DNA of 64,000 nt, taken from NCBI GenBank assembly GCA_965279195.1, contig CBDIHP010000042.1, positions 172,317-236,316 on the forward strand. Direction: 5' to 3'. Position numbers and translations under genes: made by a program. Shown here one piece after another: positions 679 through 33,910 of the stretch (positions within the stretch are counted from its first letter, which is position 1; each line of letters starts with the position of its first letter). The notes under the pieces are model-generated. The model made no database searches. It was given only the letters and a program-made list of their open reading frames with translations, and was not told the origin of the DNA. This DNA comes from Isosphaeraceae bacterium. GTDB taxonomy: Bacteria > Planctomycetota > Planctomycetia > Isosphaerales > Isosphaeraceae.

Positions 679-1709
679 TCAGGTCGCCTTTCTGGATGGG
701 TCGTCATACCAGCGGACCGATCTCTCGATGCTCTCCGCGTATCCGTAGGCCGGCGTCCAGCCGAGTTTCGTCTCCGCCTTCTCCGTCGAGTACGACAGGA
801 ACCGGCCCATCAGCCAGGTGGCGTAGCGGGTGATCAGGGGCGGCCTCGGCTGGCGAGTGAGCCGAGCGGCGGCCTCGATGAGCACGCTCGCGCCGAAGAC
901 CAGCCTGTAGGGGAGTCTCTTTTTGATCGCCGGTGCGCCGGTGGCGGCGATCCAGAGGTTGAGGTAGTCCTGCTGGGTGATGAACCCTTGATGGGTGATG
1001 TTGTACGCCTCGCCCCGGGACCCTCGTGCCCCGCCGCAAGGATGGCCGCGTCGGCGACGTTGGGGGCGTAGATCGCGCTGATGGGGTTGGTCGCCGGGCC
1101 GATCCAGGGGACGGTCCCGGCGCGGAGTTTCGCGATCAGCCGCGCCATCGTGATCCGGTCGCGTTCGCCGTAGAGCCAGCTCGGGCGGATGATCGTGAGC
1201 GGCAGGCCGCGCGTCTCGGCCAGGTCCCAGAGGAGCCGCTCGGATTCGACCTTGCTGATCGTGTAGTAGTCCCAGAACCGCCAGAGGTTCTGGCCGAGCG
1301 GGGCCGTCTCGTCGATCGGCGGGCCGCCCTCCTTCGGGTGGCCGTAGGCGCTCGTGGAGCTGATCTGGACGAACCGCTTCGCTCCGCCGGCGAGGGCGGC
1401 CTCGGCGATGTTCCGGGTGGCGTCGAGGCAGCCGACCTGGAACTCGCCCCAGGTCCCCCAGTCGCCCACCTTGGCGGCGGAGTGGTAGACGAAATCGGCC
1501 CCCTCGGCGGCCCCGCGGCAGGCGGCGGGATCGCTCAGGTCGCCACGGAAGACCTCGACGCCGATCGCGTCGAGGAAGGTCGTCGGGGTGCCGGGCCGGA
1601 CGAGGGCCCGGACGCGATCGCCCCGGGCACGGAGCTTCTCGGCGATGTGGCTGCCCAGCAATCCGGTCGCGCCGGTGACGAGCGAGAGGCCGGGCGGATT
1701 CGCGGTCAT
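679..1709 (-). CDS. NAD-dependent epimerase/dehydratase (SDR family, extended). The reading frame is interrupted by an apparent frameshift near 1020-1035, so this may be a pseudogene or a sequencing error.
   Basis: The N-terminal part (frame of ORF 834..1709) reads MTANPPGLSLVTGATGLLGSHIAEKLRARGDRVRALVRP... with the GxxGxxG Rossmann motif and a YxxxK-like segment (YYTISK). The C-terminal part continues in the frame of ORF 679..1995 (...RGEAYNITHQGFITQQDYLNLW...WYDDPSRKAT). The two frames meet around GGGGCACGAGGGTCCCGGGGCGAGG, a G/C homopolymer context. Confidence 0.6.
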
Positions 1710-1979
1710 GGGATTCGAGGCTCTCGATCAAACATGAGTCGGGGGAAGGAGATCGGTCCGGCCCGGTGCAAGTGTTGCCCGCGATTTGGCGGGTGTCTTG
1801 AAAAATTGTCAAGGAAGGTCGTCGGGGTGTGGGTCCCGTTGCAAGGGAGCGGTCCGTGCGATGCGCGGGCGGCTCGGCGGAGGGTCGTCGGGAACCGGCC
1901 CGATCGCCCGGTCCCCGAACGGTCAACGCGACTCCCTCGGTTCCCAACGGTCGCCGGCCCCCAACCCGACGAGACCACC

Positions 1980-4046
1980 ATGGCGGAAGAAACACTCGAT
2001 CCCGGTCTGCTCGAGCAGACGAAGAATCAGATCCGTAAGCTGGTGGCCGAGATCGCCGAGCTGGCCGAGTCGGACATCCAGCCGGCGGACTTCTACGTCG
2101 AGTTCCTGAACCGCTCGGTCGCGGCCGTGGCGGCGTCGGGCGGCGCGCTCTGGCTCATGGACGGTCGGGGCGGGCTCAAGCTCCAGCATCACCTGGAGTT
2201 CCAGCTCACCGGCCTGATGAACGGCCAGATCCGCACCGCGCCCCACGACGCCCTGCTGGGCTGCATGATCCAGGCCTCGCAGGCGACGATCATCCCGCCG
2301 GGCGCCACGGTCGAGGGGGTCCCCAACGCCGGCAACCCGACCCCGTTCACGCTCATCATCGCCCCCCTGACCGTCGACAAGCAAGTCGTCGGCCTGGTCG
2401 AGATCCTGATGGATCCGAACCGCCGGGCGGCCACGCAGAAGAGCACGCTCCGGTTCGTGAGCGACCTCTGCGACCTCGCCGGTTCGTACCTCAAGAACCG
2501 CCAGATGCGGCAGATGATGTCGCAGCAGCGGCTCTGGAACCAGCTCGAAGGGTTCACGCACTCGATCCACGGCTCCTTGCACCTCAAGGACACCTGCTTC
2601 GCGGTCGTCAACGACGGCAAGCGCCTGGTCGCCTGCGATCGGTTCAGCGTCGCCTTGAAGATCGGCGGCCGGACGATGGTCGAGGCCGTCAGCGGCCAGG
2701 AAGTCGTCGAGCAGCGGGCGAACCTGATCCGCGAGCTGACCAAGCTCTCCAAGGCGGTCATCCGCTCGGGCGAGGACCTGGTCTACACCGGCAACACCGA
2801 GGGCTTCGCCCCCGACATCCGCGACTCCCTCGAAGCGTACGTCGACGAGTCGGGCTCCAAGGCCGTCATCATGACGATCTTGCACAAGCCCGAGCCCGAT
2901 CAGAGCAAGGAGAAGGTGCCGTTCGGCGTGGTCATCGCCGAGCAGATCGGCGACGAACTCGCCCCGACCGACGCCCATGCCCGCTGCGAGGTCGTCGCGA
3001 GGCACGCCTCGACCGCCCTCTGGAACGCCTCCGAGCACGACAAGACGTTCCTGCCGATCCTCAAGATGATCGGCTCCCCCTGGCGGTTCTTCCGGGGCCG
3101 GACCCTGGCGAAGATCCTCGCCGTGGTCGCCCTGCTCGTCGGCGTGATCCTGATCCTCACCTTCGTGCCCTGGGAACTCCGGATCGAAGGCAGGGGCTCG
3201 CTGCTGCCCGAGCAGCGCCGGATGACCTACGCCCCGCTCGCGGGCAAGGTCATCGAGGTGCCCGTCGATCACGGCGACATCGTCCAGGCGGGCCAGGTCC
3301 TCGCGGTGATCAAGAGCGAGGAGCTGGAGAAGGAATACCTCCGGCTCACCGAGGCCCGCAACGAGGCGAACAGCAAGAAGACCTACCTCCACATCCAGGC
3401 CGAGGCGGCCCGCAAGCGCTCCAGCGAGGAGTACAACACGATCTCCGGCCAGGAGCGCGAGGCCGACATCCAGGAGAAGGGGGCGATCGAGCAGCTCAAG
3501 ATCATCGACGAGCAGCTCAAGCAGCTCGAGATCCGCGCCCCACACAAGGGCAAGATCACGACCTGGGAGCCCAGGAAGAACCTGATCGGCCGCCCGGTGG
3601 AGATCGGCCAGGAGCTGCTCCAGATCGCCGAACTCGAAGGCGAGTGGGTGATGGAGGTCGACGTCCCCGACGACGACATGGGCCCGGTCCTCGAAGCCCG
3701 CCGCAGGCTGGACGAGGACATCAAGGCCGGCAAGAAGCCGCCCGGCTCGGCCCTGAGCGCCTACTTCGTCACGGCCACCGACCCCGAGCACCGCTACACG
3801 GGCTATGTCCGCCGGATCTCCTCGAAGGCCGAGACCGTCGAGGGCAAGCACGTGGTGAAGGTGACGGTCGGGTTCTCGGAGGACATCCGCAAGGACTTCA
3901 TGACCCGGAATCAGGCCCTCCGCCCGGGTGCGGGCGTCTCGGCCCGGATCGACTGCGGCCAGGCCCGGCTCGCCTACGTCCTCTTCCGCGACGTGATCCA
4001 CGTCTTCTACGAGAGCGTCCTCTTCCGCTGGCCGTTCCTCCGTTGA
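1980..4046 (+). CDS. Membrane fusion protein (HlyD family) with N-terminal cytoplasmic tandem GAF-like domains, a single TM helix and a periplasmic biotin-lipoyl-like/coiled-coil/beta-barrel adaptor domain.
   Basis: The ATG at 1980 is in frame with ORF 1026..4046; the upstream part of that ORF is antisense to the epimerase gene and I treat it as non-coding. The protein is MAEETLDPGLLEQTKNQIRKLVAEIAELAE...; two GAF-like blocks lie before residue ~380. The TM helix is ILAVVALLVGVILILTFV. The lipoyl-like hairpin is LAGKVIEVPVDHGDIVQAGQVLAVIKSEEL, followed by a long coiled coil (EKEYLRLTEARNEA...QLKQLEIRAPHKGKI), typical of HlyD/EmrA adaptors. Confidence 0.75.
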   Translation: MAEETLDPGLLEQTKNQIRKLVAEIAELAESDIQPADFYVEFLNRSVAAVAASGGALWLMDGRGGLKLQHHLEFQLTGLMNGQIRTAPHDALLGCMIQASQATIIPPGATVEGVPNAGNPTPFTLIIAPLTVDKQVVGLVEILMDPNRRAATQKSTLRFVSDLCDLAGSYLKNRQMRQMMSQQRLWNQLEGFTHSIHGSLHLKDTCFAVVNDGKRLVACDRFSVALKIGGRTMVEAVSGQEVVEQRANLIRELTKLSKAVIRSGEDLVYTGNTEGFAPDIRDSLEAYVDESGSKAVIMTILHKPEPDQSKEKVPFGVVIAEQIGDELAPTDAHARCEVVARHASTALWNASEHDKTFLPILKMIGSPWRFFRGRTLAKILAVVALLVGVILILTFVPWELRIEGRGSLLPEQRRMTYAPLAGKVIEVPVDHGDIVQAGQVLAVIKSEELEKEYLRLTEARNEANSKKTYLHIQAEAARKRSSEEYNTISGQEREADIQEKGAIEQLKIIDEQLKQLEIRAPHKGKITTWEPRKNLIGRPVEIGQELLQIAELEGEWVMEVDVPDDDMGPVLEARRRLDEDIKAGKKPPGSALSAYFVTATDPEHRYTGYVRRISSKAETVEGKHVVKVTVGFSEDIRKDFMTRNQALRPGAGVSARIDCGQARLAYVLFRDVIHVFYESVLFRWPFLR

Positions 4047-4180
4047 TCGGCCAGCGGTCCTCCCTGTCCGAATCCCACCGGTCCCCGCGCGGGCGGGGCC
4101 CGGATGATCCCCTACACTCTCTTCCGATCGGGTCGAACGGTCACCGCCGACGTACACCCCCACGATCCTGGAGTCCGGTC

Positions 4181-5194
4181 ATGAGCACGTCCTTCTCCAA
4201 GAAAACCGGCGCGATCGCCCTGGGCCTCTCCGCCATGCTGGGCGCGGCCACGCTCGCGCAAGACCCGGCCGGCCGCCCGGCTGCCCCCGCCCGCGCCGCC
4301 AACGATCAGAACATCCTGACGGTCGACGACGGCAAGGTGGACTGGATCTACAAGTCCGACGTCTCCGCCCTCCGCGAGGGCGTGCTCGACAAGATGGAGA
4401 TCACGATCGGCAAGGAGGTCCGACGGGGCGGGTCGATCGGCCAGTTGCACAAGACGCTGGCCGAGCTGGCCGTCGCCAAGGCGAAGGTCGCGGCCGACGG
4501 CAAGGCGGCCAAGGCCAAGGCCGAGGCCCAGCAGGAGCTGGCGTTCGCCGTCGTCGCCCGCAACGAACGACTCAGGAAGAAGGATCCCAACCTCGTCTCC
4601 GCCGAGGAGATGAACAAGGCTGAGGCCGAGTTGAAGGTTGCCGTGGCCCTGATCATTGAGGCCCAGGAGAACCAGGCCCTCGCCCGCGCGGAGCTGGCCA
4701 TCGCCCAGCAGTCGCTCGACGAGCACTTCATCAAGGCCCCGTTCGACGGCGTGGTGATCGAGGAACTCAAGCGGCCGGGCGAGAGCGTCCGAGCCAATGA
4801 GCCGGTCGTCCGCGTGGGGAACCTGGACAAGCTCCGCGTCTTCGCCTTCATCCCGCTCGATTACGTCAGCCGGATCGGCGAGGAGACGACCGTCGAGTTC
4901 CAGCCCCGCGTGACCGGCGTTCGCGGCGGGACGATGGAGATCGAGCAGAAGCGGTTCGTGGGCAAGATCACGTTCGTGGACCCGCAGATCCAGCCGATCA
5001 GCGAGACGGCCATCCGCATCTACGCCGACTTCGAGAACCCGACCAAGGAATTGAAGCCGGGCATGCAGGGCTCGCTGACGATCCGGCTGAACCCGGCGAA
5101 GCCGGCCGCCGCGGGCCTGGTCCAGCCGCAGCCCGCCCCGGGCGTCGGCCCCGCCGCCGCCGCCTCGGCCGAGCTGCCGCCGCTGCCCCGCTGA
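4181..5194 (+). CDS. HlyD/efflux-adaptor family periplasmic protein (membrane fusion protein paralog) with a signal peptide.
   Basis: The ATG at 4181 is in frame with ORF 3644..5194. MSTSFSKKTGAIALGLSAMLGAATLAQDPA is a signal peptide. The lipoyl-like motif FIKAPFDGVVIEELKRPGESVRANEPVVRVGNLDKLRVFAFIP and the coiled coil AELKVAVALIIEAQENQALARAELAIAQQSL are characteristic of membrane fusion proteins. Confidence 0.7.
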   Translation: MSTSFSKKTGAIALGLSAMLGAATLAQDPAGRPAAPARAANDQNILTVDDGKVDWIYKSDVSALREGVLDKMEITIGKEVRRGGSIGQLHKTLAELAVAKAKVAADGKAAKAKAEAQQELAFAVVARNERLRKKDPNLVSAEEMNKAEAELKVAVALIIEAQENQALARAELAIAQQSLDEHFIKAPFDGVVIEELKRPGESVRANEPVVRVGNLDKLRVFAFIPLDYVSRIGEETTVEFQPRVTGVRGGTMEIEQKRFVGKITFVDPQIQPISETAIRIYADFENPTKELKPGMQGSLTIRLNPAKPAAAGLVQPQPAPGVGPAAAASAELPPLPR

Positions 5195-5301
5195 GAAGCT
5201 CGCCGCAGCCCGCCGTCTTGGCCCTTGCCGTCTAGCTGGAATCGACTGAACGACGCCCCGTCCACGCACCCTACCGGGACGCAAGCCAGGAGCGACTCCG
5301 C

Positions 5302-7497
5302 ATGAGCGCCGCCCCGACGATGGCCCCCTCGGCGCCGGCCGGACAGGCCGCCGAGCACCTCTGCGTGCGGCTGCGGCCGGACCTGATCGTCCAGCCGCAG
5401 TTCTACGAGGGGATGACCCACTACGTCATCAAGGACCCGATCGCGCTCAAGTACTTCCGCTTCAAGGTGGAAGAGTACTTCCTGCTCCAGCAGTTCGACG
5501 GCAAGAACAACCTCCAGGACGTCAAGCGGGCCTTCGAGAAGAAGTACCGCCCGCAGACCATCTCGGTCGACGACCTCATCCGCTTCGCCGCCCAGCTCCA
5601 CGAGGCGGGCATCGCCCTGGTCGACACCCCCGACCAGGGGCAGGCGCTCATCCGGCGCCGCAAGAAGAACCAGTGGAAGAAGGTCTGGCAGTTCTTCGCC
5701 AACATCCTGTACATCAAGATCCCGATCATCGATCCGGAACGCTTGCTGAGCTGGATGTACCCCTACTTCCGCTGGATCTACTCCTCCTGGTTCATGACCT
5801 TCAGCGTCGGGCTCATGGTCTCGGCCCTGATGCTGGTCATCAGCCAGTGGGCGACCTTCAGCAGCCGATTGCCCGACTTCCAGAGCTTCTTCAACTGGCA
5901 CACCATCTTCTACTTCTGGTGTAGCCTGGCGGTCGTGAAGGTGATCCACGAGTTCGGGCACGGGCTCACCGCCAAGCACTTCGGCGGCGAGGTCCACGAG
6001 ATGGGGGCGCTGCTGCTCGTCCTCACGCCCGCGCTCTATTGCGACGTCACCGACAGCTGGCTCCTGCCCAACAAATGGAAACGCATCTGGATCTCGGCGG
6101 CCGGCATCTATGTCGAATGCTTGCTGGCGTCGATCGCGACCTTCGTCTGGTGGAACACCGAGCAAGGGCTGCTCAATAGCTTGTGCCTGGCGACCATGTT
6201 CATCTGCTCGGTGAACACGATCCTCTTCAACGCAAACCCCCTGCTCCGCTACGACGGCTATTACGTCATGTCGGACTTCCTGGAGGTTCCGAACCTCCGG
6301 ATCAAGAGCACCCAGTTCTTCACCTACCTGTTCCAGGAGAAGGTGCTCGGGCTGGAGTTGCCGGTCCAGAGCTACATGCCCCGCTCGCGCCGGTTGCTGT
6401 TCGTGACGTACGCCGTCGCCAGCTACCTTTACCGCTGGATCGTGTCCTTCAGCATCATCTGGTTCCTTTATCAGTTCCTCAAGCCGTACAAGCTCGGGTC
6501 GCTGAGCGCGATCCTGGCGGTCGGCTCGCTCGTGCCGCTGATCGTGATGCCCGTCTATCAGATGATCAAGTTCGTCCGCACTCCTGGGAGGATGCGCAAA
6601 GTGAAGAAGCTTCGCACGGCCGCCTTCTTTGCGGTCTTGATCACCGCCGCGACGGCCATCCTGCTGATCCCGACCCCGCTCCGCGTGCAGGGGACGCTAG
6701 TGCTCACGGCGGAGAGGCCCGCCACCGTCTACGCCGAGGTCCCGGGCCTCCTGGAGACCATGGACGTCCGCGACGGCGACGTCGTCAAGGAAGGCCAGAT
6801 CCTCGCGACCCTGAGCAATCCCGAGAAGATCCGCGAGCGGATCCAGCGCACCGACGAGCAGGCGGCGAACTTCGCCAAGGCCAGCTACTTCGCGCAGAAT
6901 TCCGACCTCAACAGCCGCGCCCAGTACAAGGTCCACCTGAAGATCCAGGAGGAGCTTGAAGAGGTCATCAAGAAGGTCGTCGAGCAGATCGGCAAGCTGA
7001 CGCTGGTCGCCCCGCGCGACGGCGTGGTGATGGGGGTCCCCCAGCGCGAGACGCTGGGTCAGCACCTCAAGCCGGGCAAGGTCTTCTGCGAGGTCGCCGA
7101 CCCGACCAGGCTCGAAGCCCACATGATCCTCGACCAGTCGGACATCGACCTCGTCCGCTCGAAGAAGGACCAGCGGGCGACGGCCTGGATCAAGGTCTAC
7201 GGCACCTCCGAGACGACTTGGAAGAGCTACGTCTCCGAGATCGCGCTCCGCAACCGCGAGGAGATCCCGCCCGAGCTGTCGCACATGGCCGGCGGCGAGA
7301 TCGCGACCAAGCAGGACCAGAAGACCGGCCAGGTCAAGCCGCTGACCCCGATGTACGAGGTCATCATCCCTGTGGACAACTCCGAGCTGCGGCTCCAGCC
7401 GAGTCTGCGCGGGTTCGCCAAGATCGACTGCGGTCACTGCACCCTCGCCTGGTGGCTCTGGCGGCTCGTGGCCAAGACCTTCCACTTCTCGCTCTGA
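5302..7497 (+). CDS. Peptidase M50 (site-2 protease-like intramembrane zinc metalloprotease) fused to a C-terminal HlyD/membrane-fusion-protein-like periplasmic domain.
   Basis: The HExxH zinc motif HEFGHGL sits in a TM segment, followed by the M50 signature NANPLLRYDGYYV (N-x2-P-x4-DG). Multiple TM helices are present. After a further TM helix (AAFFAVLITAATAILLIP) come a lipoyl-like hairpin TAERPATVYAEVPGLLETMDVRDGDVVKEGQILATLSNPE, a coiled coil and LVAPRDGVVMGVP, as in HlyD adaptors. An AGGAG-like RBS lies about 9 nt upstream of the ATG at 5302. Confidence 0.8.
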   Translation: MSAAPTMAPSAPAGQAAEHLCVRLRPDLIVQPQFYEGMTHYVIKDPIALKYFRFKVEEYFLLQQFDGKNNLQDVKRAFEKKYRPQTISVDDLIRFAAQLHEAGIALVDTPDQGQALIRRRKKNQWKKVWQFFANILYIKIPIIDPERLLSWMYPYFRWIYSSWFMTFSVGLMVSALMLVISQWATFSSRLPDFQSFFNWHTIFYFWCSLAVVKVIHEFGHGLTAKHFGGEVHEMGALLLVLTPALYCDVTDSWLLPNKWKRIWISAAGIYVECLLASIATFVWWNTEQGLLNSLCLATMFICSVNTILFNANPLLRYDGYYVMSDFLEVPNLRIKSTQFFTYLFQEKVLGLELPVQSYMPRSRRLLFVTYAVASYLYRWIVSFSIIWFLYQFLKPYKLGSLSAILAVGSLVPLIVMPVYQMIKFVRTPGRMRKVKKLRTAAFFAVLITAATAILLIPTPLRVQGTLVLTAERPATVYAEVPGLLETMDVRDGDVVKEGQILATLSNPEKIRERIQRTDEQAANFAKASYFAQNSDLNSRAQYKVHLKIQEELEEVIKKVVEQIGKLTLVAPRDGVVMGVPQRETLGQHLKPGKVFCEVADPTRLEAHMILDQSDIDLVRSKKDQRATAWIKVYGTSETTWKSYVSEIALRNREEIPPELSHMAGGEIATKQDQKTGQVKPLTPMYEVIIPVDNSELRLQPSLRGFAKIDCGHCTLAWWLWRLVAKTFHFSL

Positions 7498-7529: not shown

Positions 7530-7575
7530 GACCGGCCGGCCTCGGGGCAACCCAGGGCCGGCCGGTTTCGTTTGG
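7530..7575 (+). terminator. Rho-independent terminator-like hairpin downstream of the M50-HlyD gene.
   Basis: ACCGGCCGGCC-tcggggcaacccag-GGCCGGCCGGT followed by TTCGTTT. Confidence 0.5.
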
Positions 7576-8208
7576 AGGGCGCCCGGGCTCTGCCTCGCCG
7601 GTTCATCTGATCCGCCAGCCCCGCGGTGCGCGAGCCTCCACCCATGATGCGGGAGCGAGAGCCGAAGGGACGCCCGACCGGATCGGAGGCGCTGGGCGAG
7701 CAACTCCCGATGCCGCCCTTGCCCTCGCCCCGCTGACCGACCGAACCAGATCTCCCGATCCGTCGACACGGGACGAATGACGTCGGACCGGGAGATCCGG
7801 TTTCGCGGCCTGTCGCGTCATCCGGTGGAGCGGCATCGGGAGATCCCCGCCCAGCGCACGCGACCGGATCTCGGCGTTTGGCAGGCCATTCGGGAGGTCG
7901 GCATCGGGAGAGGCGTCCCTGCGGTGTCGTCAAGGTGCCCGCGGGTTTCCGTCCTCGGAAACCCGGTCCAGCTGCGTCGCGGAAGAACCGGCCTGGGTGG
8001 ATCTCCCGGAATTTCGAGGCCGAATCCCTCGGGCAGCTCTGGGGCATTGGGCCGGAAACCGGCAGCTTCGCACCCGCACTACGAAGTGGGCTTCGAAAGT
8101 AAACCGGCCGCGACGGCCCTCGAAAGGACCGCCGCGGCCGGCAGGCTAGGAGACTCGGGACGGGGGCGGCCGGTTCGGGGCCGCCCAGGGTTCGCTCGAC
8201 GGGGAGAC

Positions 8209-11200
8209 TCAGCCGTTGCTGGTCTTCTTGGCCGAATTCTGGCTCGCCAGCGACTTCAGGGAGTCCACGATGGACTGCGCGGTGTTGCCGTCGCCGGTCG
8301 TCGTCGTGCTCGCCGTGGTCGTGGTCGTCGGCGTGGTGGTCGTCGGGGTGACGATCACCGGGGTGGTCTTCTTGGCGACCGTGGTCTTCTTCGCGGTCTT
8401 CGTCGCCTTGACCGGGGCGCTGAAGAGCGAGTAGACCGGGCCGTTGGTCGTGTTGGGCTGGAGGCCCTTGTTCACGCCGAAGGAGGCCGGCGTCCGCTTG
8501 GCGTAACCCTGGACCTTGCTCTTCGGCACGAACATGTAGGTCGGCTTCAGATACTTGAGGTCGTTGAAGTTACGCTTGGTGTCGGGTGCCAGGAGGTACC
8601 CGTTCGCGCTGGCCCGCTGGCGGTCGACCACGACGTACTGGTCGGGTTGCGGGAGCAGCTTGGTGGAGAGCATCTTCAGGGAGTCGATCGAGACCGCCCC
8701 GTTGAGGTCGCCGTCGGCCGCGTAGTCGAAGTAGTTGAACCGGCGCTGGAGGGCGTCGGGCTGCTCGGGCGTGTCGCCGGTCAGGCCGGTCGAGGTGAAC
8801 CCGTTCTGGTCGTTGGTCGCCGCCCGGGCGGTGCCGCCCAGGAGCCTCGCCATCGCACCGTCCTCGGGCAGGCCGAGGCGGGCCGAGTCGTCCACGAAGG
8901 TCTGGATCTCCTGCGCGGTGATCAGGCCGTTGTGGTTCGTGTCGATGATGTCGAAGGCGTTGTGGGCGAACAGGTACTGCAGGGCGACGGTGCCCTCGAT
9001 CGACGCGACGGCGTTGCCGACGTCGACCCGGGCGTAGCTGCGGAACTGGGTGCTGTCCCCCTTGAGCCGGAACGGCCCGGACTGGCTCTGGCCGTCGTTG
9101 ACGTCGGTCGCGGCGACCGCGGTGTACGCCAGGATCCCGTTGATGCCGTCCGGGGTGTTGTACGGCGTCAGGTTGGCGAAGGCGTTGGTGCCGAAGTTCA
9201 GCGTCTTGACGCCGACCGGCTGGGTCAGGTACGCGTCGGCCGTGCTCGCCGTGGTCAGCTGGTTGGTCCAGTATTGCAGGGCGGACGACACGACGGCGTA
9301 GGAGCCGGTGACGATGCCGGCCGAGAGCGAGGTACCGCCCGCGGTGTAGGTCATCGTGAGGCTGGCGTCGCCGACGAATCGGCGTCGGAAGGTCGGCACG
9401 TCGAGGGCCGGGGCCGCGAAGTCGGTCGTGACCGAGCGGTTGGCCGCGCCCAGGACGCGGTCGCTGTAGAAGACGCCGGCCCCGGTGTTGGCGCTCGCAC
9501 CGCCGTTATTGCCGTTGCCACCGCCGTTGCCGCCGCCGGTGGTGGTCCCGCCGCCTTCGGCCGCCGTGAGGGTGCCGAGGGAGTTGGGCTGGACCGAGGC
9601 GTTGGTGGTGCCGGTGTTGCCCGTGGTCGTGGTGGTGCCGCCCGGCGAGCTGGTGCCGCCGAAGACGAGGACCGGGCCCTGGACCCGCGGGATGAGCGTG
9701 TTCGCCGGGTCGGTCGGGATCGAATCCGGCTGCCCGAGGTACGGGAACGGATAGACGCCGGTGACCGAGATCACCTCGTTGAGGATCGCCGGCAGCGACA
9801 TGCCGTTGACGTCGCCGACGTTGGCGCTCTGGTTGCTGTTGGTGAAGCCGGTGTTGCTCGTCCCGGTGCCACCGCCGTTGCCGCCGTTGCCGCCGTTGCC
9901 GCCGCCGCCGGTGTTGAGCGGGGCGCCGAACTGGCCGGCCGCGGCGATCGGGGCGATGCCCAGGTCGCGGAACTTCTTGAACTGGTTCTTGAAGGCGATC
10001 ACGATCTGCGGGTAGCGGCGGAACGCGGTCCCTTCGGAGTCGAAGGTCTCGCTGGTGCCGAACCCGATCGTGGCGGCGATGACGCGGTCGGTCTGGCCCG
10101 GGCGGACCGGGTCGGCGACATACGGATGCGCGGCGGTGTAGGCGAAGCCGTTGTAGACGGCGTTGGTGCTGGTCAGGGTGTTGGTGACGATCGTCGTCGT
10201 GCCGCCGCCGTTCCCGTTCCCGCCGCCGCCGCCGGTCGTGCCGCCAGTGTTGCCCGCGTTGAACGGGTTGAAGGCCGAGACCGGATTCAGGGTGGCCTGC
10301 GGGACGAACTGCGAGACGACGCCGGCGACCAGCGTGCCGTGGCCATCGGCCGTGGTCGGGATCGACGCGCCGCCGGTGGTGCCGTTGTTGCCGTTGTTGC
10401 CGTTGCCGGTCGCGGCCGTGGTGGCGAGGCCGGCGGCGTAGTCGTCGTTGCCTGTGCCGTTGGTCAGGACGTTCTTGCCCGGCGCCACGCGGCCGCGGAA
10501 GCCGGGGGACGTGGCGTCCACGCCGGTGTCGAGGATCGTGACGGCGCTGTTCTGGCCCTCATACGGGACGCCGAGGGTCCGCAGGTCGTTGAGGCCGACG
10601 AGCGAGCCGCTGGTCGAGCCGGCGAGGCTGGCCTGCGTCTTGAACTGCCAGATGCCGTCGTTGTCGGCGGCGTACAGGGTCGTGCCGTCGGCCGAGAAGG
10701 TGATGCTCAGGCTCGACGACGTGAACGAGCTCGAGTCGAACGCGTTCGAGGTGTTGAATCCGGTCGCGAACGGGGTCACGACGCCGGTCGGGCTGATCCG
10801 GACGATACGCCCGCCGAGCGACCCGCTCGAGGCCGAGATGATCTGGTTGCCGGCCGAGTCGAGGGTCGCGCCCGCACCGCCGGGGCCCTGGACCGGGATG
10901 ACCGTCACCTGACCGGTGGTGGTGCCCGGGGTCGGGACGGTGGTCGCCAGGCCGCTCGCCAGGTCGCTCACGAACAGGCTGCCGACATACTGCACCGCAC
11001 CATACGTGAAGTTGGTGGTGGTGCCGGTGGTGCCGGTGGTCGTCGTGCTGGCCGAGGTCACGACCACGCCGTTCGAGAAGTAGCCGTACTTGTCGAACGC
11101 GGTGTCCTGGAAGCGGCGCAGGTTGGTGTCGGCGACCGTGAAGCCATCGACGCTGCCGCCGGTCCCGAGCGTGAAACCCGTCGGCTGGGTGCCGGTGCTG

Positions 11201-12297
11201 GCGACCGTCGAGGTGGTGCCGGTGCCGATCAGGAGGCCGCCGCCGAGGCCCTGGACCCCGGAGAACCCGGCCGTCTGCGGGAACGGGTTGCCGGAATCGG
11301 GCGGGAAGGCCGGGACGCCGAAGTCGGTGAAGGCCGAGTAGACCTGCGACACGTAGTCGGTGTTCGTGCTGGTCGAGGCCAGGCCGACCTGGGGTCCGAG
11401 CGTCAGCGCGGTGTTCTTGACGCCCGGGGGGAGCGTCGGCGTGCTGATGTTCTGGCCGGGCTTGTACTGGTTGGCGTCGAAGAACAGGGCGGCGAACTGG
11501 GTGTTCGACGTCGTGTTCTGGACGGTGCTCGAACCCGTGCCCGTGCCCGAGATCAGCCCGCGGAGGAACGACTGCTGCTCGGCCGGCGGCACGAGGATCG
11601 CCGACGGATTGATCGAAAGCCGGGTCCCCTTCAGGCTGCTGTCGCTGTAGGTGACGAACGCCCCCAGGAAGGAGCCGTCGGGGCCGATCCGGTAGATCGC
11701 GTTCTTGGTCGGGTCGGTCGAGTCGACCGTCGAGACGAACATCGACGACCGGCCGTCGAAGTAACCTTCGGGGTCGAACGTGACGTCATACCAGTTCACG
11801 AGCCCCGTGCCGGTGCCGGCCGAGTTGGCGGCGCTGGTGGCGCTGGGGTTCAGCTGGGGGATGACGGTGTTGAGGTCGAAGAACACTGACGCCTTGCCGG
11901 TGGCCGGGTCCACGCGGTAGATCACGCCGGGGCGGTTGATGGCCCCGGTGTTGGAGCCCGCACCGCGCGAGACGGCGTAGATGCCCTTGCCGAAGTCGCC
12001 GCCGGGGCCGGCCTCGATCCGGACGATGTCGCCGCCGAACTGGTTGATCGGCGTGAGCTGAGACACCGAGGTGAACGGGGCGGCCGACGCGAACGTCGAG
12101 GTCCCCGTCGTCTGCGTCGTGATGGTGACGTTGCCCACGGAGGGCGTCCCCGCGTTCGCCGTGAATGTGGCGGACGTCGGGAAGGTCGCCAGGACCGGGG
12201 TCAGCACCTCACGGATTTCCAGGTGCTGGACTTCCAGCCGGACTTCGCGCTTCTGCCGCGAGGGGCCTCGCGCCTTGGGTCGGGATGGGTGAGACAT
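8209..12297 (-). CDS. Subtilisin-like serine peptidase (S8 family), 1362 aa. It has long Gly/Thr/Asn-rich low-complexity inserts, C-terminal dockerin/EF-hand-like Ca-binding repeats and a Lys/Thr-rich tail.
   Basis: Catalytic triad motifs: ILDTGVD (Asp), HGTLVAGVVS (His), GGTSLSAGIVTG (Ser). Dockerin-like repeats: DTNHNGLITAQEIQTFVDD and DYAADGDLNGAVSIDSLKML. C-terminal tail: KTAKKTTVAKKTTPVIVTPTTTTPTTTTTASTTTTG. Confidence 0.8.
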   Translation of the reverse strand: MSHPSRPKARGPSRQKREVRLEVQHLEIREVLTPVLATFPTSATFTANAGTPSVGNVTITTQTTGTSTFASAAPFTSVSQLTPINQFGGDIVRIEAGPGGDFGKGIYAVSRGAGSNTGAINRPGVIYRVDPATGKASVFFDLNTVIPQLNPSATSAANSAGTGTGLVNWYDVTFDPEGYFDGRSSMFVSTVDSTDPTKNAIYRIGPDGSFLGAFVTYSDSSLKGTRLSINPSAILVPPAEQQSFLRGLISGTGTGSSTVQNTTSNTQFAALFFDANQYKPGQNISTPTLPPGVKNTALTLGPQVGLASTSTNTDYVSQVYSAFTDFGVPAFPPDSGNPFPQTAGFSGVQGLGGGLLIGTGTTSTVASTGTQPTGFTLGTGGSVDGFTVADTNLRRFQDTAFDKYGYFSNGVVVTSASTTTTGTTGTTTNFTYGAVQYVGSLFVSDLASGLATTVPTPGTTTGQVTVIPVQGPGGAGATLDSAGNQIISASSGSLGGRIVRISPTGVVTPFATGFNTSNAFDSSSFTSSSLSITFSADGTTLYAADNDGIWQFKTQASLAGSTSGSLVGLNDLRTLGVPYEGQNSAVTILDTGVDATSPGFRGRVAPGKNVLTNGTGNDDYAAGLATTAATGNGNNGNNGTTGGASIPTTADGHGTLVAGVVSQFVPQATLNPVSAFNPFNAGNTGGTTGGGGGNGNGGGTTTIVTNTLTSTNAVYNGFAYTAAHPYVADPVRPGQTDRVIAATIGFGTSETFDSEGTAFRRYPQIVIAFKNQFKKFRDLGIAPIAAAGQFGAPLNTGGGGNGGNGGNGGGTGTSNTGFTNSNQSANVGDVNGMSLPAILNEVISVTGVYPFPYLGQPDSIPTDPANTLIPRVQGPVLVFGGTSSPGGTTTTTGNTGTTNASVQPNSLGTLTAAEGGGTTTGGGNGGGNGNNGGASANTGAGVFYSDRVLGAANRSVTTDFAAPALDVPTFRRRFVGDASLTMTYTAGGTSLSAGIVTGSYAVVSSALQYWTNQLTTASTADAYLTQPVGVKTLNFGTNAFANLTPYNTPDGINGILAYTAVAATDVNDGQSQSGPFRLKGDSTQFRSYARVDVGNAVASIEGTVALQYLFAHNAFDIIDTNHNGLITAQEIQTFVDDSARLGLPEDGAMARLLGGTARAATNDQNGFTSTGLTGDTPEQPDALQRRFNYFDYAADGDLNGAVSIDSLKMLSTKLLPQPDQYVVVDRQRASANGYLLAPDTKRNFNDLKYLKPTYMFVPKSKVQGYAKRTPASFGVNKGLQPNTTNGPVYSLFSAPVKATKTAKKTTVAKKTTPVIVTPTTTTPTTTTTASTTTTGDGNTAQSIVDSLKSLASQNSAKKTSNG

Positions 12298-16738: not shown

Positions 16739-19700
16739 ATGGCGATCCTCGAAGTCCACGACGGTTACGGTCGCGTCGAGCGGAAGATCATCACCCAGGA
16801 CCGCCCCATCCTGTTCGGGTCGAGCCCCAAGTGCGAGATCGTCCTGACCGCGATGGGCGTCGAGCCCTTCCACGGGCGGATCCGCTGGAAGGGCGACCGC
16901 TACAAGCTGGACGCCTACCCCGAGGTCGAGTCCCTCTCGCTCAACGGCCAGCGGATCAAGTCCGCCTCCCTGCGCCAGGGAGACGAGATCGCCTTCGGCC
17001 CCTGCCGGATCTTCATGATCCAGGACGACGACGGCGACGACCAGGTCGTCGACGACCGTACCCGCGAGGCCCCGCCGCCCGCCTACGCCCAGCCGGCCCC
17101 GACCTCCTCGCCCCCGCGCGCCTCCGCCGCGACCCCGTGGCTCGCCTCGCCCATGGCCCCGCCGTCGGTCGAGGGCTCCGCGCCCCGGGCCCAGACGCCC
17201 CTGCCCCGGTCCCGGCACGCGTCCAAGCGAGAGCAGATCGAAGGGCTGAACGCCGATCAATCCCGCGAGGCCGAGCCCCCCGGCCGCGCGAAGGCAAAGG
17301 GACGCAAGCTCAGCGACCTCTTCACCTTCAAGCCGCAATCCCCCGACGACGACCAGGCCGTCGTCTCGCCCATGGTCGTCAGCCTCGGCGTCGCCCTGGC
17401 GATCATCGTCGTGCTGAGCTGGTCGCTCTGGACCGTCATCCAGAAGAACAACGCCCAGCGCCTCTACGCCAAGGCGGTGGATGAGCTGGACACCGGCGAC
17501 TTCCGCAACTCGGTCCGGCAGTTCGACCAGTTCCTCGAAGGCTTCCCGAAGCACACCGAGGCCGAGAAGGCCCGTGTCCTCCGCGAGATGGCCAACGTCC
17601 GCCAGTACACCAGCGGCGGCGCGCCCTCCTGGAACAACGCACTCGAAGCCGCCGAGGAGATGACCCAGAAGGTCGGCGACAACGAGTTCTACGTCGACTC
17701 CCGGCCCGACCTGGCCGAGCAGGTCCTCAAGATCGCCGAAGGGCTCGCCGACCGGGCCCGGGAACTCGCCGACGCCGAGCTCGTCGCCAAGGCCGAGGCC
17801 GCCCTGGCGCTCCACGGCCGGATCTCGGGCGAGTCGGCCAAGGCCCTGGTCCAGAAGTCGCAAGCCCCGAACAAGATCGCCCAGGCGAAGGCGACCATCC
17901 AGCGGATCCAGACGCGCACCAGGGCCCTCGCCTCGATGGACGCCGCCGCCAAGGCGGGCAAGGCCGCCGAGGTCTACGCCGCCCGCGACCAACTCCTGAC
18001 CGAGTACGCCGACCTCTCCGGCGACAAGGACGTCATCTCCCGGCTCACGGCCGCGAACGACCTGATCCGCAAGGCGGTCAACTTCGACGAGTCCGCCCGA
18101 CCCGGCGAGACCGAGCCGCGCCCGGAGATCCTCGGCCCGCCCATCAGCCTCGTGCTCCGCGACGCCATCCGCCCCGCCGCCCCGAAGTCCGACCTCGTCT
18201 ATGCCCTGGTCGACGGCCTGGTCTTCGGGATCGACGGTTCGAGCGGGACGCCCCTCTGGCAGAAGCCCGTCGGGCTCGCCTCGCCGTTCCCGCCGGTCGC
18301 CGTGCCCGGGCCTGACCCGAGCATCCTCGTCGTCGACTCCCGCTACAACGAACTCGTCCGGATCAACGGCCGCAGCGGCAAGCTGATCTGGCGGCAGGAA
18401 CTCGGCGAGGTCGTCAGCGACCCGCCGCTGATCCTCGGCAATCAGGCTGTGCAGCCCCTGCCGTCGGGCAAGCTGCTGCTGGTGGACATCAACTCTGGCG
18501 GCACCCGAGGGTCTGTCACTCTGGGCAAGCGGATCGCCAGGTCCCCGGTCACCGACGAGAACGGCCAGCTCCTCTACGTCCTGGCCGAGGAGGACGTCCT
18601 CTTCGTCCTGACCCGCGACACCTATTCCTGCGTCGCGGTCGAGTACGTCGGCCACCAGAAAGGCTCGATCGGCGCGCCGCCGGCCCGCGTCGGCCGCTAC
18701 CTGGTCGTGGTCGAGAATAAAGGCATTGACACCGGTCGATGGCTGGTCTACCTCCTCAGCGAGGACGGCACGAAGCTCAAGCAGGTCCAGGACATCCCCA
18801 TCGGCGGCTGGACGTGGTCGACGCCCGCGTCGGCCGGGTCGGTGATCTGGTCGATGTCCGACCGCGGCGAGGTCGCGGCCTATTCGGTCGGCCTCTACGA
18901 CGCCAAGGTGCCGTTCACCCTGATCTCGAAGACCGTCCCCGAGGACCGCCCGGTTGGCCCGTCGTACGGAACGGCCCGGTCGGATCGGGAGTTCTGGATC
19001 TCCTCATCCCGCTCGGGCCGGTACAACCTCAACACCGAGCAGGGGCGGCTCGTGCCGGCCTGGACCGTCGGCGAGGCGGGGCCCTCCCGGGGGCCGATCC
19101 AGGTCGCCGGCAAGCTGATGGTCCTGACCCAGCAGAACGGTACCGACCCCGGCGTCGCGCTCTGGGGCATCGACCCCAATCGCGGCTCGACCGTCTGGAA
19201 GACGACCCTGGGCGCACCCTGGCCCGTCCTGCCGTCCTCGGCCGGGGCCGACCGGCCGCTCGAAGCCTTCGGGCCCGACGGCGCGGTGCTGCCGATCTCC
19301 AGCGAGGTCGTGAAGGGGGGCGGGTTCCTCCAGGCCACCCTCGCCAGGCCGGCCCAGTTCCGGCTCCCGACTGGGAAGCTCCAGCGCGTGGACATCGGCG
19401 CGAGCACCCTGGTCGTCCAGCCGGGCGAGAACCGCATGCTCGTCCGCGAGGACAAGGCCGCCTTCCAGCCCATCGAACTCCCGGCCCCGACCGGCGTCAC
19501 CCCGCTCGCCTGGGGGACGAACCTGCTCATCCCCAGCATCGACAGCCGGGTCTACTTGATCGACCCGAGGTCGGGCGCGGCCCAGGCCGACCCGTTCATG
19601 CCGCCGTACGACAAGAAGAAGCCGGTCGTCTGGCTCTCGCCGGTCCTGCTCGACGGCGACGCCGTCGGCCTGGCCGACACCGAGGGCCGGATCCGTCGCC

Positions 19701-20218
19701 TGACCCGGATCGGTAACCCCCGCCCGAGGCTGGAGATCACGACCGACCTCAAGCTCGACGCCCCGCTCGCCGCCGACCCCGCCTCAACCGGCCCGGCCCT
19801 GATCGTCCTGACGACCGACAACAAGGTGCGGTCCCTCTCGGCCCGCGATCTCGGGGCCCAGGGGGCCTGGATGCTCGAAGCCCCCGCGCTCTGGGGCCCG
19901 AAGGCCGTCGGCGGCCGGGTGTTCCTGGGCGACGCCCAGGGTCGGATCCTGGCGTTCGGGCCCGACGGCTCTCGCCAGTGGACCAGCCCGCCGTCGAAGT
20001 CGGTCGCCGAGGCGCCCCCGCTCGTCCGGGACGGCGCGGCCTGGTTCCTCGGGCGTGACGGCAAGCTGTTCGGCCTGTCGCTCGACGACGGCAGCCTCAA
20101 GCGCGACCCGGCCCCGCTCGGCGTCCTGCCGCTCGGCCCGGCGATCACGACCCAGGGCGAGCTGCTCGTCCCCACCGGCTGGAGCAGCCTGCGACGATTC
20201 GACGTCTCCGGTGGTTAA
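16739..20218 (+). CDS. FHA domain protein (1159 aa) with a single TM helix, a long coiled-coil/helical region and a C-terminal PQQ-like beta-propeller.
   Basis: N-terminal FHA signature: ILFGSSPKCEIVLTAMGVEPFHGRIRWKGDRYKLDAYPEVESLSLNGQRIKSASLRQGDEIAFG. TM helix: VVSPMVVSLGVALAIIVVLSWSLWTVI. C-terminal repeats (LVYALVDGLVFGIDGSSGTPLWQKPVG..., GRSGKLIWRQELG...) resemble BamB/PQQ repeats. Confidence 0.7.
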   Translation: MAILEVHDGYGRVERKIITQDRPILFGSSPKCEIVLTAMGVEPFHGRIRWKGDRYKLDAYPEVESLSLNGQRIKSASLRQGDEIAFGPCRIFMIQDDDGDDQVVDDRTREAPPPAYAQPAPTSSPPRASAATPWLASPMAPPSVEGSAPRAQTPLPRSRHASKREQIEGLNADQSREAEPPGRAKAKGRKLSDLFTFKPQSPDDDQAVVSPMVVSLGVALAIIVVLSWSLWTVIQKNNAQRLYAKAVDELDTGDFRNSVRQFDQFLEGFPKHTEAEKARVLREMANVRQYTSGGAPSWNNALEAAEEMTQKVGDNEFYVDSRPDLAEQVLKIAEGLADRARELADAELVAKAEAALALHGRISGESAKALVQKSQAPNKIAQAKATIQRIQTRTRALASMDAAAKAGKAAEVYAARDQLLTEYADLSGDKDVISRLTAANDLIRKAVNFDESARPGETEPRPEILGPPISLVLRDAIRPAAPKSDLVYALVDGLVFGIDGSSGTPLWQKPVGLASPFPPVAVPGPDPSILVVDSRYNELVRINGRSGKLIWRQELGEVVSDPPLILGNQAVQPLPSGKLLLVDINSGGTRGSVTLGKRIARSPVTDENGQLLYVLAEEDVLFVLTRDTYSCVAVEYVGHQKGSIGAPPARVGRYLVVVENKGIDTGRWLVYLLSEDGTKLKQVQDIPIGGWTWSTPASAGSVIWSMSDRGEVAAYSVGLYDAKVPFTLISKTVPEDRPVGPSYGTARSDREFWISSSRSGRYNLNTEQGRLVPAWTVGEAGPSRGPIQVAGKLMVLTQQNGTDPGVALWGIDPNRGSTVWKTTLGAPWPVLPSSAGADRPLEAFGPDGAVLPISSEVVKGGGFLQATLARPAQFRLPTGKLQRVDIGASTLVVQPGENRMLVREDKAAFQPIELPAPTGVTPLAWGTNLLIPSIDSRVYLIDPRSGAAQADPFMPPYDKKKPVVWLSPVLLDGDAVGLADTEGRIRRLTRIGNPRPRLEITTDLKLDAPLAADPASTGPALIVLTTDNKVRSLSARDLGAQGAWMLEAPALWGPKAVGGRVFLGDAQGRILAFGPDGSRQWTSPPSKSVAEAPPLVRDGAAWFLGRDGKLFGLSLDDGSLKRDPAPLGVLPLGPAITTQGELLVPTGWSSLRRFDVSGG

Positions 20219-32557: not shown

Positions 32558-32681
32558 GGTGGGCACCGCCCACCGCAACAGACGCCCGCATGAACATGCC
32601 AAGGAGCATGTTCATGCGGGCGTGTTGCTTGGGTTTGATGCGTCACGGAACGGCCGATGTTGCGGTGGGCCGTGCCCAACC
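32558..32681. terminator. Nested palindromic structure between convergent genes: an inner 15-bp-stem hairpin flanked by ~21-bp imperfect outer inverted repeats.
   Basis: Inner: CCCGCATGAACATGC-caaggag-GCATGTTCATGCGGG (32585-32620). Outer: GTGGGCACCGCCCACCGCAAC ... GTTGCGGTGGGCCGTGCCCAAC. Confidence 0.5.
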
Positions 32682-33910
32682 TACCGGGGCCCAATGACCA
32701 TGATGCCGTGGATGCCGGGCTTGTCCTTCTGGGCGTCGTAGTCGAATTGGGGGCGGATCGGGACGTAAAGGCGTTTGCCGTCGGTGATCGGGGCCTCGAC
32801 CTGCTCGCCATCGTTCCGGGGGCGGTATCGCCACCGGAGGCGGCCGTCGCTGCGGTTGAGGGCGTAGAGGTAGCCGTCATCGGAGCCGAAGTAAACGGCC
32901 GTCGCGTCGACGATCGGGGCTCCGCTGAGGAAATAATGCTTGTTGTCGGGGCGGCGTGGGGTCTCGTATTCCCAGATTTGCTTGCCTGTTTTCGCGTCGA
33001 TCCGGTAGCAGAAACCGTCGCTAGCCGCGCCGAAGATCGAGCCGTCTATGTAGGCGAGGTCGCCGTCGGCCCGCCAGCGGGTCTTGAAGCTCCAGGCGGG
33101 TTTGCCCGTGGCGACGTCGATGGCGTGGATCGAGCGATCCTGGCTGCCGACGAAGACCTTCCCGTCGGCCACGGTCGTCCCCGAACCGATCCACCCTTTC
33201 GTCTGGTAAGACCAGACCGTCTTGCCGGTCGCGAGGTCGAGGGCGATGACCCGGCACTGGTCGAAGATCGGCAGGTAGGCTCGCGTGCCGTCGCTGGAGG
33301 CCGAGCCCGGCCTGGCGCGGTTCTGTCCGATCCGGGCCTTGGCGCCGTCGAAGCCTTTCGGGTCGGGAGGCGCGTCCTTGACGATGTCGACCTTCCAGAG
33401 TTCCTTCCCCGACTTCGCATCCAACGCATAGGCGAATCCGTCGTCGCCCCCGACGATCAGCTTGCCCGCAACCACGAGGGGCGTGCCCCCGGCCCCTCCG
33501 TCGATCGTGAAACTCCAGGCATCCTTGCCGTCCTCGGCGCGACAGGCGGTCACGCCTCGATTGGAGGCAAGGTAAACCAGCCCGTCGACGACCGTCGGGG
33601 CCATGTAAACATCCCAGTCCGGGACCTCCTTGATCCAGATCTCCACGCCGTCACTGAGTCGGAAGGCCGCGACCGCCCCCTGGCGATTCCCCGCGATCAG
33701 GCGGTCTCCGGCGATGACGGCTTGCCCTGCACTCTTCTTGAGGTCGAGCCCCCACTCGGTGATCGGGGCGTCGGGGAGTTTCGCGTCGGGATAGGCACCG
33801 GCCCGCGCGGGCCCGCCCCGGGCGTGGCCGTCGTCGGCCGGTGAGGGCGACGGCCACGCGATCGCGAGTGCAGCCACGATGTAGATCTTCAGGGGGGGAT
33901 GAAGAGGCAT
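32681..33910 (-). CDS. Secreted PQQ-like beta-propeller repeat protein (BamB-like fold).
   Basis: Internal start MPLHPPLKIYIVAALAIAWPSPSPADDG is a signal peptide. Repeats: GKELWKVDI, GKTVWSYQTKGWIGSGTTVADGKVFVGSQDRSIHAIDVATGKPAWSF, GKQIWEYE, DGRLRWRY. Confidence 0.7.
   Translation of the reverse strand: MPLHPPLKIYIVAALAIAWPSPSPADDGHARGGPARAGAYPDAKLPDAPITEWGLDLKKSAGQAVIAGDRLIAGNRQGAVAAFRLSDGVEIWIKEVPDWDVYMAPTVVDGLVYLASNRGVTACRAEDGKDAWSFTIDGGAGGTPLVVAGKLIVGGDDGFAYALDAKSGKELWKVDIVKDAPPDPKGFDGAKARIGQNRARPGSASSDGTRAYLPIFDQCRVIALDLATGKTVWSYQTKGWIGSGTTVADGKVFVGSQDRSIHAIDVATGKPAWSFKTRWRADGDLAYIDGSIFGAASDGFCYRIDAKTGKQIWEYETPRRPDNKHYFLSGAPIVDATAVYFGSDDGYLYALNRSDGRLRWRYRPRNDGEQVEAPITDGKRLYVPIRPQFDYDAQKDKPGIHGIMVIGPR

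Follow-up and report, generated by a model that had tools for sequence, protein, structure and literature searches.

The DNA analyzed here, referred to as the window, is a stretch of 64,000 nucleotides from an Isosphaeraceae bacterium of the phylum Planctomycetota (assembly GCA_965279195.1, contig CBDIHP010000042.1, positions 172,317 to 236,316 of the forward strand). Close to its left end three genes follow each other on the plus strand, which we call P1, P2 and P3. According to domain profiles, hydropathy and comparison with orthologues, P1 (1980-4046, 688 amino acids) encodes two GAF domains, a transmembrane (TM) helix and a periplasmic adaptor of the membrane fusion protein (MFP) type. P2 (4181-5194, 337 amino acids) encodes a secreted or periplasmic MFP recognized by TIGR01730, HlyD_D23 and HlyD_3. 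The product of P3 (5302-7497, 731 amino acids) combines a predicted recognition element (RRE) for peptides that are made by ribosomes and modified after translation (RiPPs), an M50 protease and a third MFP, as indicated by profiles, residue conservation, an AlphaFold2 (AF2) model and Foldseek searches.

The G+C content of the window is about 68%, and many of its open reading frames (ORFs) are spurious. The frames of P1, P2 and P3 are read through without stop codons, and a G+C content of 0.9-1.0 at the third codon position tracks them (~1950-4046, ~4200-5194 and ~5250-7497), in agreement with the three co-directional genes that a previous sequence-only reading of this DNA had placed at these positions. 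The ATG of P1 at 1980 lines up with the starts of the orthologues; the open frame itself reaches back to 1026. The same reading had described the genes as lying within tens of bp of each other, which has to be corrected to gaps of 134 bp between P1 and P2 and 107 bp between P2 and P3. The intergenic region between a divergent epimerase gene and P1 (1710-1979), which from its position is presumed to hold the operon promoter, has no coding signal in any frame, and a consensus scan found no sigma-70 consensus there. Directly after the stop codon of P3 a GC-rich hairpin with a U-rich tail (7530-7575, plus strand) resembles a terminator. The corresponding 93-nt fold has a dG of -55.7 kcal/mol (z = -3.69), and none of 200 shuffled sequences was as stable; the consensus scan missed this hairpin because its stem/loop pattern was not matched. 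The hairpin fits the end of an operon, and a single transcription unit of P1, P2 and P3 is plausible because of the short gaps, the hairpin after the last stop codon and the divergent orientation of the upstream gene.

P3 reached 35.1 bits with Peptidase_M50 (PF02163, cutoff 27.2) and was also matched by HlyD_3 and HlyD_D23. The membrane domain, delimited by the M50 match, hydropathy and the AF2 model, comprises residues ~145-455 (nt 5734-6666) with about seven predicted TM helices and contains the motifs HEFGH (residues 216-220, nt 5947-5961) and NANPLLRYDG (residues 310-319, nt 6229-6258); the Asp of the latter motif is the third zinc ligand in M50 proteases. In 32 homologues with 30-70% identity the residues H216, E217, H220, N310, N312, P313, D318 and G319 are invariant. 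Selection thus acts on the zinc site, and proteolytic activity is very likely. In the AF2 model of P3, with a mean predicted local confidence (pLDDT) of 85, the chain passes from approximately seven membrane helices into a lipoyl domain, then an alpha-hairpin and a beta-barrel, and closes with a short helix at the C-terminus. The putative periplasmic MFP part covers residues 457-714 (nt 6670-7443; alpha-hairpin at 507-564) at a pLDDT of ~85-92, and the conserved C-terminal helix extends beyond it up to nt 7494. A Foldseek search with the C-terminal third returned AcrA, MexA, MacA, ZneB and EmrA at E values of ~1e-12, and the TriA-TriB fusion (6vej) ranked second among the sequence matches of P3 in the PDB. 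Because of the Foldseek matches to AcrA, MexA and MacA, the modeled adaptor regions are regarded as genuine MFP folds and not as generic coiled coils; for P1 and P2 the MFP identity rests on sequence, for P3 also on the predicted structure. The protease with the two motifs and a C-terminal adaptor, which the sequence-only reading had recognized in P3, and the HlyD-type nature of the adaptors thus stand.

That reading had overlooked a domain in front of the protease, and with it the kinship of P3 with RiPP leader peptidases rather than with signaling site-2 proteases. RREs are domains to which ribosomally made peptides bind through their leader. Residues ~20-110 of P3 (nt 5359-5631), predicted to be cytoplasmic, have no match in Pfam, yet they are conserved among the 32 homologues with K44 and P46 invariant. 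Sequence profiles of the N-terminal domain gave weak and consistent matches to PqqD and, over the whole domain, to TfuB1, the leader-binding protein of a lasso peptide (E 0.006-0.019). The domain was additionally modeled separately by AF2 (pLDDT 79), and Foldseek placed TfuB1 with bound leader first among PDB structures, followed by TigE, TbiB1 with leader, TruD and CteB. The model shows a three-stranded beta-sheet followed by three helices, the winged-helix arrangement, and identifies the predicted domain as a PqqD-like RRE. Moreover, residues 45-426 aligned with almost the complete profile of the daptide intramembrane metalloproteases (NF041824, positions 22-377 of 379) at an E value of 1.3e-50, so that by sequence comparison P3 is related to the RRE-dependent leader peptidases. 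For the RiPP-associated M50 protease EpeP it is thought that the enzyme cleaves as well as exports its peptide (reviewed in PMC10885120). About 45 ORFs of the window were scanned by Pfam or NCBIfam; the typical neighbors of a daptide cluster, a precursor ending in Thr and MpaB, MpaC, MpaD and MpaM, were not among them.

In P1, the first GAF domain (residues 41-173, nt 2100-2498) was matched by GAF and GAF_3 with E values of 5.5e-6 to 3e-5, and the N-terminal fragment alone barely passed the cutoffs (27.2 bits versus 27 for GAF_3, 24.9 bits versus 22.4 for GAF). The second one (residues ~202-347, nt 2583-3020) gave an E value of 0.087 with Pfam GAF in the window copy, over profile positions 2-133 of 133. 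Pfam GAF was matched by 17 of 18 orthologues in this region (best E 1.5e-8), the PDB profile matches are GAF domains of phytochromes and cyanobacteriochromes, and N211, D220, R221 and S238 are invariant among the orthologues. At the level of profiles the second domain is thus confirmed as GAF through the Pfam matches of the orthologues, and no similarity between the two domains was detectable by hhalign. Both are predicted to be cytoplasmic and precede the sole TM helix of the protein (residues 379-397, nt 3114-3170, Kyte-Doolittle value 3.0). The putative periplasmic MFP region follows at residues 418-660 (nt 3231-3959), with Pfam matches to HlyD_3, HlyD_D23 and Biotin_lipoyl_2 at residues 418-617; the TriA-TriB fusion (6vej) leads the PDB profile matches, which also include MacA, LipC, MexJ and EmrA. 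The MFP region is followed by a conserved hydrophobic C-terminal helix (to nt 4043); the conserved C-terminal motif is CG..GY..F...E....VLF. Pfam, hydropathy and the orthologues therefore support the architecture that the sequence-only reading had given for P1, with tandem GAF domains, a TM helix and an HlyD-type adaptor.

P2 is the stand-alone adaptor. It scored 115 bits with TIGR01730 (RND_mfp, cutoff 94.9) and was also matched by HlyD_D23 and HlyD_3, the MFP lying at residues 51-304 (nt 4331-5092). Unlike P1 and P3 it was not matched by Biotin_lipoyl_2 in Pfam. Residues 1-26 (nt 4181-4258), judged by eye, look like a signal peptide, and a hydropathy scan revealed no TM helix past this N-terminus. 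The earlier description of P2 as a secreted HlyD-type adaptor agrees with these data.

The module is widespread. Among the candidates scored for P3 more than 5,000 were close matches, and the best 120 are 71-77% identical to it; the few of these with a named source belong to Isosphaeraceae or other Planctomycetes (Singulisphaera, Tundrisphaera). Database entries of such relatives carry the name 'HlyD family efflux transporter periplasmic adaptor subunit' or 'putative peptide zinc metalloprotease protein'. An exhaustive search against representatives at 50% identity yielded 14,161 matches with E<=1e-3, of which 4,542 had E<=1e-30. The best 150 of these representatives are mostly full-length M50-MFP proteins of ~720-760 amino acids, the remainder being shorter and apparently truncated entries. 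In Singulisphaera acidiphila the orthologues of P1, P2 and P3 are present in the same order, with different sequences on both flanks. Scanning of species-representative genomes confirmed at least 571 loci, and the best 80 of them are nearly all labeled Planctomycetota; the module was present in loci of every planctomycete lineage sampled. Of 54 planctomycete loci with at least 4.5 kb of upstream sequence, 46 have a GAF-MFP gene ahead of the M50-MFP gene in the same orientation, and in two it lies on the opposite strand. The middle gene of these loci, classified by Pfam, encodes an MFP in 31 cases and a fusion of MFP and WD40 propeller in 11, mainly in Gemmataceae. The comparison of neighborhoods thus bears out that the three genes are a conserved unit.

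Variations of this unit were observed in several lineages. In locus L012 (7530-9668) and 12 further loci, mainly from Gemmataceae, a middle protein of ~700 amino acids replaces the adaptor gene product; it carries a membrane anchor at the N-terminus, a region that resembles an MFP and is homologous to P2, and at the C-terminus a WD40 beta-propeller. A conserved ORF of 120-160 amino acids lies directly upstream of the GAF-MFP gene in the same locus (4744-5112) and in 7 further Gemmataceae loci; it was seen in Gemmataceae alone and has no Pfam match. Two pairs of M50-MFP loci, L020/L049 and L027/L071, each come from one metagenome-assembled genome, so that some genomes contain two or more paralogous modules.

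Two further genes adjoin the module in a part of the loci. A short SecA with SecA_DEAD, PPXD and P-loop (E 8.7e-101) was found in 6 of the 43 loci with wide flanks. Copies beside the module encode ~670 amino acids (L040:4681-6681, L034:12363-14561, and in L045, L050, L051, L070 and L081), do not include the wing/scaffold part and are 69-82% conserved within Gemmataceae; a homology search with the Gemmataceae protein returned matches solely from this family. A SecA-like gene was found neither in the window nor in the Singulisphaera locus, and most of the loci examined have none nearby. A highly conserved DUF3467 protein of ~110 amino acids adjoins the module in 10 of the 43 loci. Its gene (L050:12397-12729, L040:12249-12611 and 19 further loci, many from Pirellulales) directly follows the M50-MFP gene or precedes the GAF-MFP gene, and the protein has the core YxNFCRV..PEE.I.DFGLN...TAKR...RHE..FG behind a variable N-terminus rich in Q, A, P and E. 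Its profile gave no meaningful match to PDB sequences; roles as chaperone or adaptor, or even as a substrate, are conceivable. Using tblastn with probes for the short SecA, DUF3467, the small Gemmataceae ORF and MOSC, nothing was detected in the whole window. Clustering of the neighbors of ~80 loci, not all of which were annotated by Pfam, revealed no other recurrent neighbor. By gene content, the conserved unit is thus the three-gene module, and SecA and DUF3467 are facultative neighbors. Most of the distant P3 representatives that were looked up lie on short contigs. On one contig of 26 kb, a gene with a faint match to OEP/TolC and a caspase-family gene (Peptidase_C14) lie near a distant M50-MFP gene (33% identity; L083:1-1747 and 2801-4984). 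Nothing else points to an outer-membrane factor close to the module, and this one case is too little to generalize.

The sequence-only reading was not aware of a described equivalent. This is not correct, because the gene set had been described in silico by Kamneva, Poudel and Ward (PLoS One 2015, PMC4452313), and there are thousands of copies in the databases. According to the parts of that paper considered here, the authors started from 'secondary SecA_DEAD domain proteins' and found around them protein clusters with Peptidase_M50 and HlyD, with HlyD/Biotin_lipoyl, and with GAF and HlyD/Biotin_lipoyl. The loci came from Planctomycetes, Verrucomicrobia, Proteobacteria (e.g. Methylobacterium extorquens META1p2399-2402), Nitrospirae and Chlorobi. 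A machine related to type I secretion was proposed, with the short SecA as ATPase and the M50 protein as a possible pore; the components can be encoded apart, and the biological role was given as unknown. The module in these parts of PMC4452313 shares with the window genes the three protein types and their co-location. It is centered on the short SecA, which is found neither in the window nor in most planctomycete loci examined here, and the same parts do not mention an RRE or a link to RiPP leader peptidases, the M50 protein being treated as a possible pore. Full-text literature searches, including the papers citing Kamneva et al., revealed no experimental study of the module within the library searched. 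The module is thus already described computationally; what is added here is the RRE and the relationship with RiPP leader peptidases.

Our preferred interpretation, held tentatively and at slightly less than even confidence, is that the module is a machine for leader-peptide-guided processing and export. P3 would be an inner-membrane zinc protease from the RiPP-leader-peptidase branch of M50. Because its N-terminal 158 residues are rich in K and R and the number of helices is odd, its N-terminus is probably inside and its C-terminus outside. A peptide or small protein made by the ribosome may bind to the RRE through its leader, which the site formed by HExxH and NxxPxxxxDG would cut off at the membrane's inner face. 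With their MFP domains, P1 (membrane-anchored), P2 (soluble or secreted) and P3 could build a hetero-oligomeric periplasmic sleeve. Its alpha-hairpins would probably extend to a TolC-like channel whose gene lies elsewhere, and cleavage would in this way be coupled to release of the product across the envelope. Through the GAF domains of P1, a small-molecule signal may control whether the machine opens or assembles. The energy would be supplied by a partner encoded outside the window, for which the short SecA that adjoins the module in some relatives is the most plausible candidate. The sequence-only reading had suggested a signal-controlled, periplasm-spanning machine for proteolysis or export. 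This general idea is compatible with all findings, while its emphasis on regulated intramembrane proteolysis is not maintained: the RRE and the kinship with RiPP leader peptidases shift the mechanism towards peptide maturation and export.

Several observations weigh against this interpretation. P3 scored 172.7 bits with NF041824 (cutoff 300) and 51.2 bits (E 1.3e-13) with NF058609, the YydH/LiaK epipeptide proteases (cutoff 225). These scores are well under both cutoffs, and judged by them P3 is therefore a member of neither family. A conserved short ORF of 25-110 amino acids that resembles a precursor was not found within 1.5 kb of the module in more than 80 loci; the search yielded only DUF3467 and its antisense shadow ORFs. 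Genes for ABC (ATP-binding cassette), RND (resistance-nodulation-division) or MFS (major facilitator superfamily) pumps, OEP/TolC or SecA were not among the window ORFs scanned. This agrees with the earlier statement that no transporter lies within about 10 kb, although this statement can be checked on one side only because the window contains only ~2 kb upstream of P1. The GAF matches are weak in P1 of the window itself, and to our knowledge no M50 protease has been shown to be a translocation pore. Finally, the module is nearly universal, with 65-77% identity among Isosphaeraceae-type copies, and this conservation looks more like that of a housekeeping envelope function than that of a typical, patchy RiPP cluster. 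A more far-reaching form of the processing and export machine, which appears unlikely, would be a distinct envelope export system independent of ABC transporters, in which the RRE-guided intramembrane protease is the entry gate, the three adaptors form the duct, the GAF domains control gating, the short SecA supplies the force and DUF3467 is a possible chaperone.

The proposal of Kamneva et al. (PMC4452313) leads to a protein exporter similar to type I secretion, with the short SecA as ATPase, the M50 domain mainly as a channel, unfolded proteins as substrates and proteolysis as a secondary activity. It overlaps with leader-guided processing and export and differs from it in the substrate and in the role of the M50 domain. 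Besides having been published, it can draw on the short SecA, which is itself highly conserved and located directly beside the module in the six loci mentioned above, and on the faint OEP-like match near one distant locus. Nevertheless, we rate it as unlikely: SecA-like genes are missing from the window, the Singulisphaera locus and the vicinity of most loci, and the invariant zinc site together with the RRE argues for a central role of specific recognition and cleavage of a peptide. Quite improbable, in our estimate, is regulated intramembrane proteolysis, in which the M50 domain would cleave an anchored regulator such as an anti-sigma factor, the GAF domains would sense the trigger and the MFPs would act as a scaffold or sense the periplasm. 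M50 is the classic site-2 protease family and GAF a sensor domain, but P3 carries an RRE and neither PDZ nor CBS, its closest curated models are RiPP leader peptidases and not RseP or SpoIVFB, and a scaffold function hardly accounts for three complete MFP folds with alpha-hairpins. In Singulisphaera a gene for an extracytoplasmic function (ECF) sigma factor lies directly upstream of the module; it was rejected as a signaling link, since this neighbor is not conserved and is absent from the window and from the other families.

An ordinary efflux function would require that P1, P2 and P3 serve a distant ABC, RND or MFS pump and TolC in the transport of small molecules, with the GAF and M50 domains as accessories. 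The score of P2 above the RND_mfp cutoff, the drug-efflux adaptors among the best structural matches and the naming of the family by NCBI as an efflux adaptor agree with this explanation, and pumps with two MFPs are known (TriA-TriB fusion, 6vej). A pump gene beside the module was found neither in the window nor in the Singulisphaera locus, however, and the clustering of neighbors at 80 loci, not all annotated by Pfam, gave no other recurrent large partner. Moreover, an accessory role leaves unexplained the fusion to a very likely active, RRE-bearing protease, which is invariant across thousands of homologues, and we consider this explanation very unlikely. The presence of the module throughout the sampled Planctomycetota, its strong conservation and the WD40 interaction platform on the middle MFP of Gemmataceae would also suit a complex that organizes or tethers the envelope, in which a ring of MFPs would connect the inner membrane with the outer membrane or the cell wall, the protease would serve quality control or maturation of an envelope component, and nothing would be exported. 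A dedicated cargo gene was indeed not found within 1.5 kb at the 80 and more loci, but the evidence for tethering is purely negative, and a specific peptide substrate is suggested by the RRE and by the relationship to leader peptidases; such a complex seems highly improbable to us.

Several other features of the window were noted. The epimerase gene upstream of P1 (NAD-dependent, 679-1709, minus strand) is split across two reading frames: the orthologue from Singulisphaera aligns with amino acids 6-209 in frame -3 (1682-1068) and with amino acids 228-330 in frame -2 (1014-706). The gene is thus frameshifted, either as a pseudogene or through an assembly error. This gene is a conserved upstream neighbor solely in Isosphaeraceae-type loci, and a gene for a DUF5118 protein is also located upstream of P1. 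Downstream of P3 there is a strong hairpin with an 18-bp stem at 8103-8142, followed by an ORF of 1,362 amino acids (8209-12297, minus strand) with a third-position G+C of 0.96 and a weak EF-hand match; an antisense shadow ORF (7777-11889, plus strand) overlaps it. Further downstream, the plus strand encodes a protein of 1,159 amino acids with FHA and a PQQ/BamB-like beta-propeller (16739-20218), and a second PQQ-propeller protein is encoded on the minus strand (32681-34015). At 37129-44010 (plus strand) a sigma-70 region-4 protein of 199 amino acids is encoded directly upstream of a Ser/Thr kinase of 2,086 amino acids with many TPR repeats. A tRNA-Gly gene (47645-47717) is immediately followed by a phage-type integrase (47810-49003, minus strand), a Prim-Pol primase-polymerase (50059-51396) and an ORF of 1,140 amino acids with no Pfam match (51526-54948, minus strand). 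From its gene content the region 47645-54948 looks like an integrated mobile element, for which no att-like direct repeat was found. An anti-phage defense function of P1, P2 and P3 was also considered and dropped, as PADLOC gave no match for them or their neighbors.

Planctomycete envelopes are unusual, and we know of no experimental work on peptide export in this phylum. The module is widespread, with more than 4,500 clusters of M50-MFP proteins at 50% identity, and the only description found in the literature is the computational one of 2015. The RRE and the kinship with leader peptidases turn the vague label 'secretion-related' into testable hypotheses. If export without an ABC transporter were true, the module would be a new design among bacterial export systems and would provide a pathway for secretion or peptide release across the Planctomycetota and, scattered, in other phyla. 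If a pump is encoded elsewhere, the direct fusion of a processing protease to a periplasmic adaptor would still be unusual.

P1, P2 and P3 were compared with several known systems. One of the closest to P3 is MpaP, the 'RRE-dependent intramembrane peptidase' of the daptides (NF041824; Ren et al., Nat Commun 2023, PMC10036551), which like P3 has an N-terminal RRE and an M50 core and whose type is assigned the removal of the leader at the membrane (PMC10036551). P3 has in addition a C-terminal MFP of 270 amino acids, and daptide precursor or modification genes were not found near it among the window ORFs scanned. Furthermore, the characterized daptide clusters are from Gram-positive bacteria (Microbacterium, Staphylococcus), whereas the window belongs to a diderm phylum. 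The RiPP-associated M50 proteases EpeP (YydH) and TglG/TmoG form a branch of M50 related to P3. A fusion to an MFP is not described for them in the review PMC10885120, and P3 differs from them also in having no adjacent precursor, radical-SAM or ABC genes.

The signaling site-2 proteases RseP and SpoIVFB, which have PDZ or CBS domains for regulation and transmembrane regulators as substrates, share with P3 the M50 core with HExxH and NxxPxxxxDG in membrane helices; P3 contains an RRE and an MFP in place of PDZ or CBS. The MFP of P3 has the same lipoyl, alpha-hairpin and beta-barrel fold as AcrA, MexA, MacA and EmrA, and TriABC (6vej) is a precedent for non-identical MFPs in one assembly. In contrast to the tripartite efflux adaptors, P1, P2 and P3 are three paralogues fused to GAF domains and to an RRE and M50 protease, with no pump gene found in the window. 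In the model of P3 a hydrophobic C-terminal helix follows the beta-barrel and no membrane-proximal domain is evident. In the exporters of the bacteriocin or colicin V type and of the HlyBD-TolC type, a C39 cysteine protease domain is located on the ABC transporter, which works with an MFP and TolC. The logic of these peptidase-containing ABC exporters, a leader-cleaving protease joined to an envelope-spanning route built from MFPs, is the same as that suggested for P3. In P3, however, the MFP itself carries the protease, a zinc enzyme of the M50 family, and the window ORFs scanned include no ABC gene.

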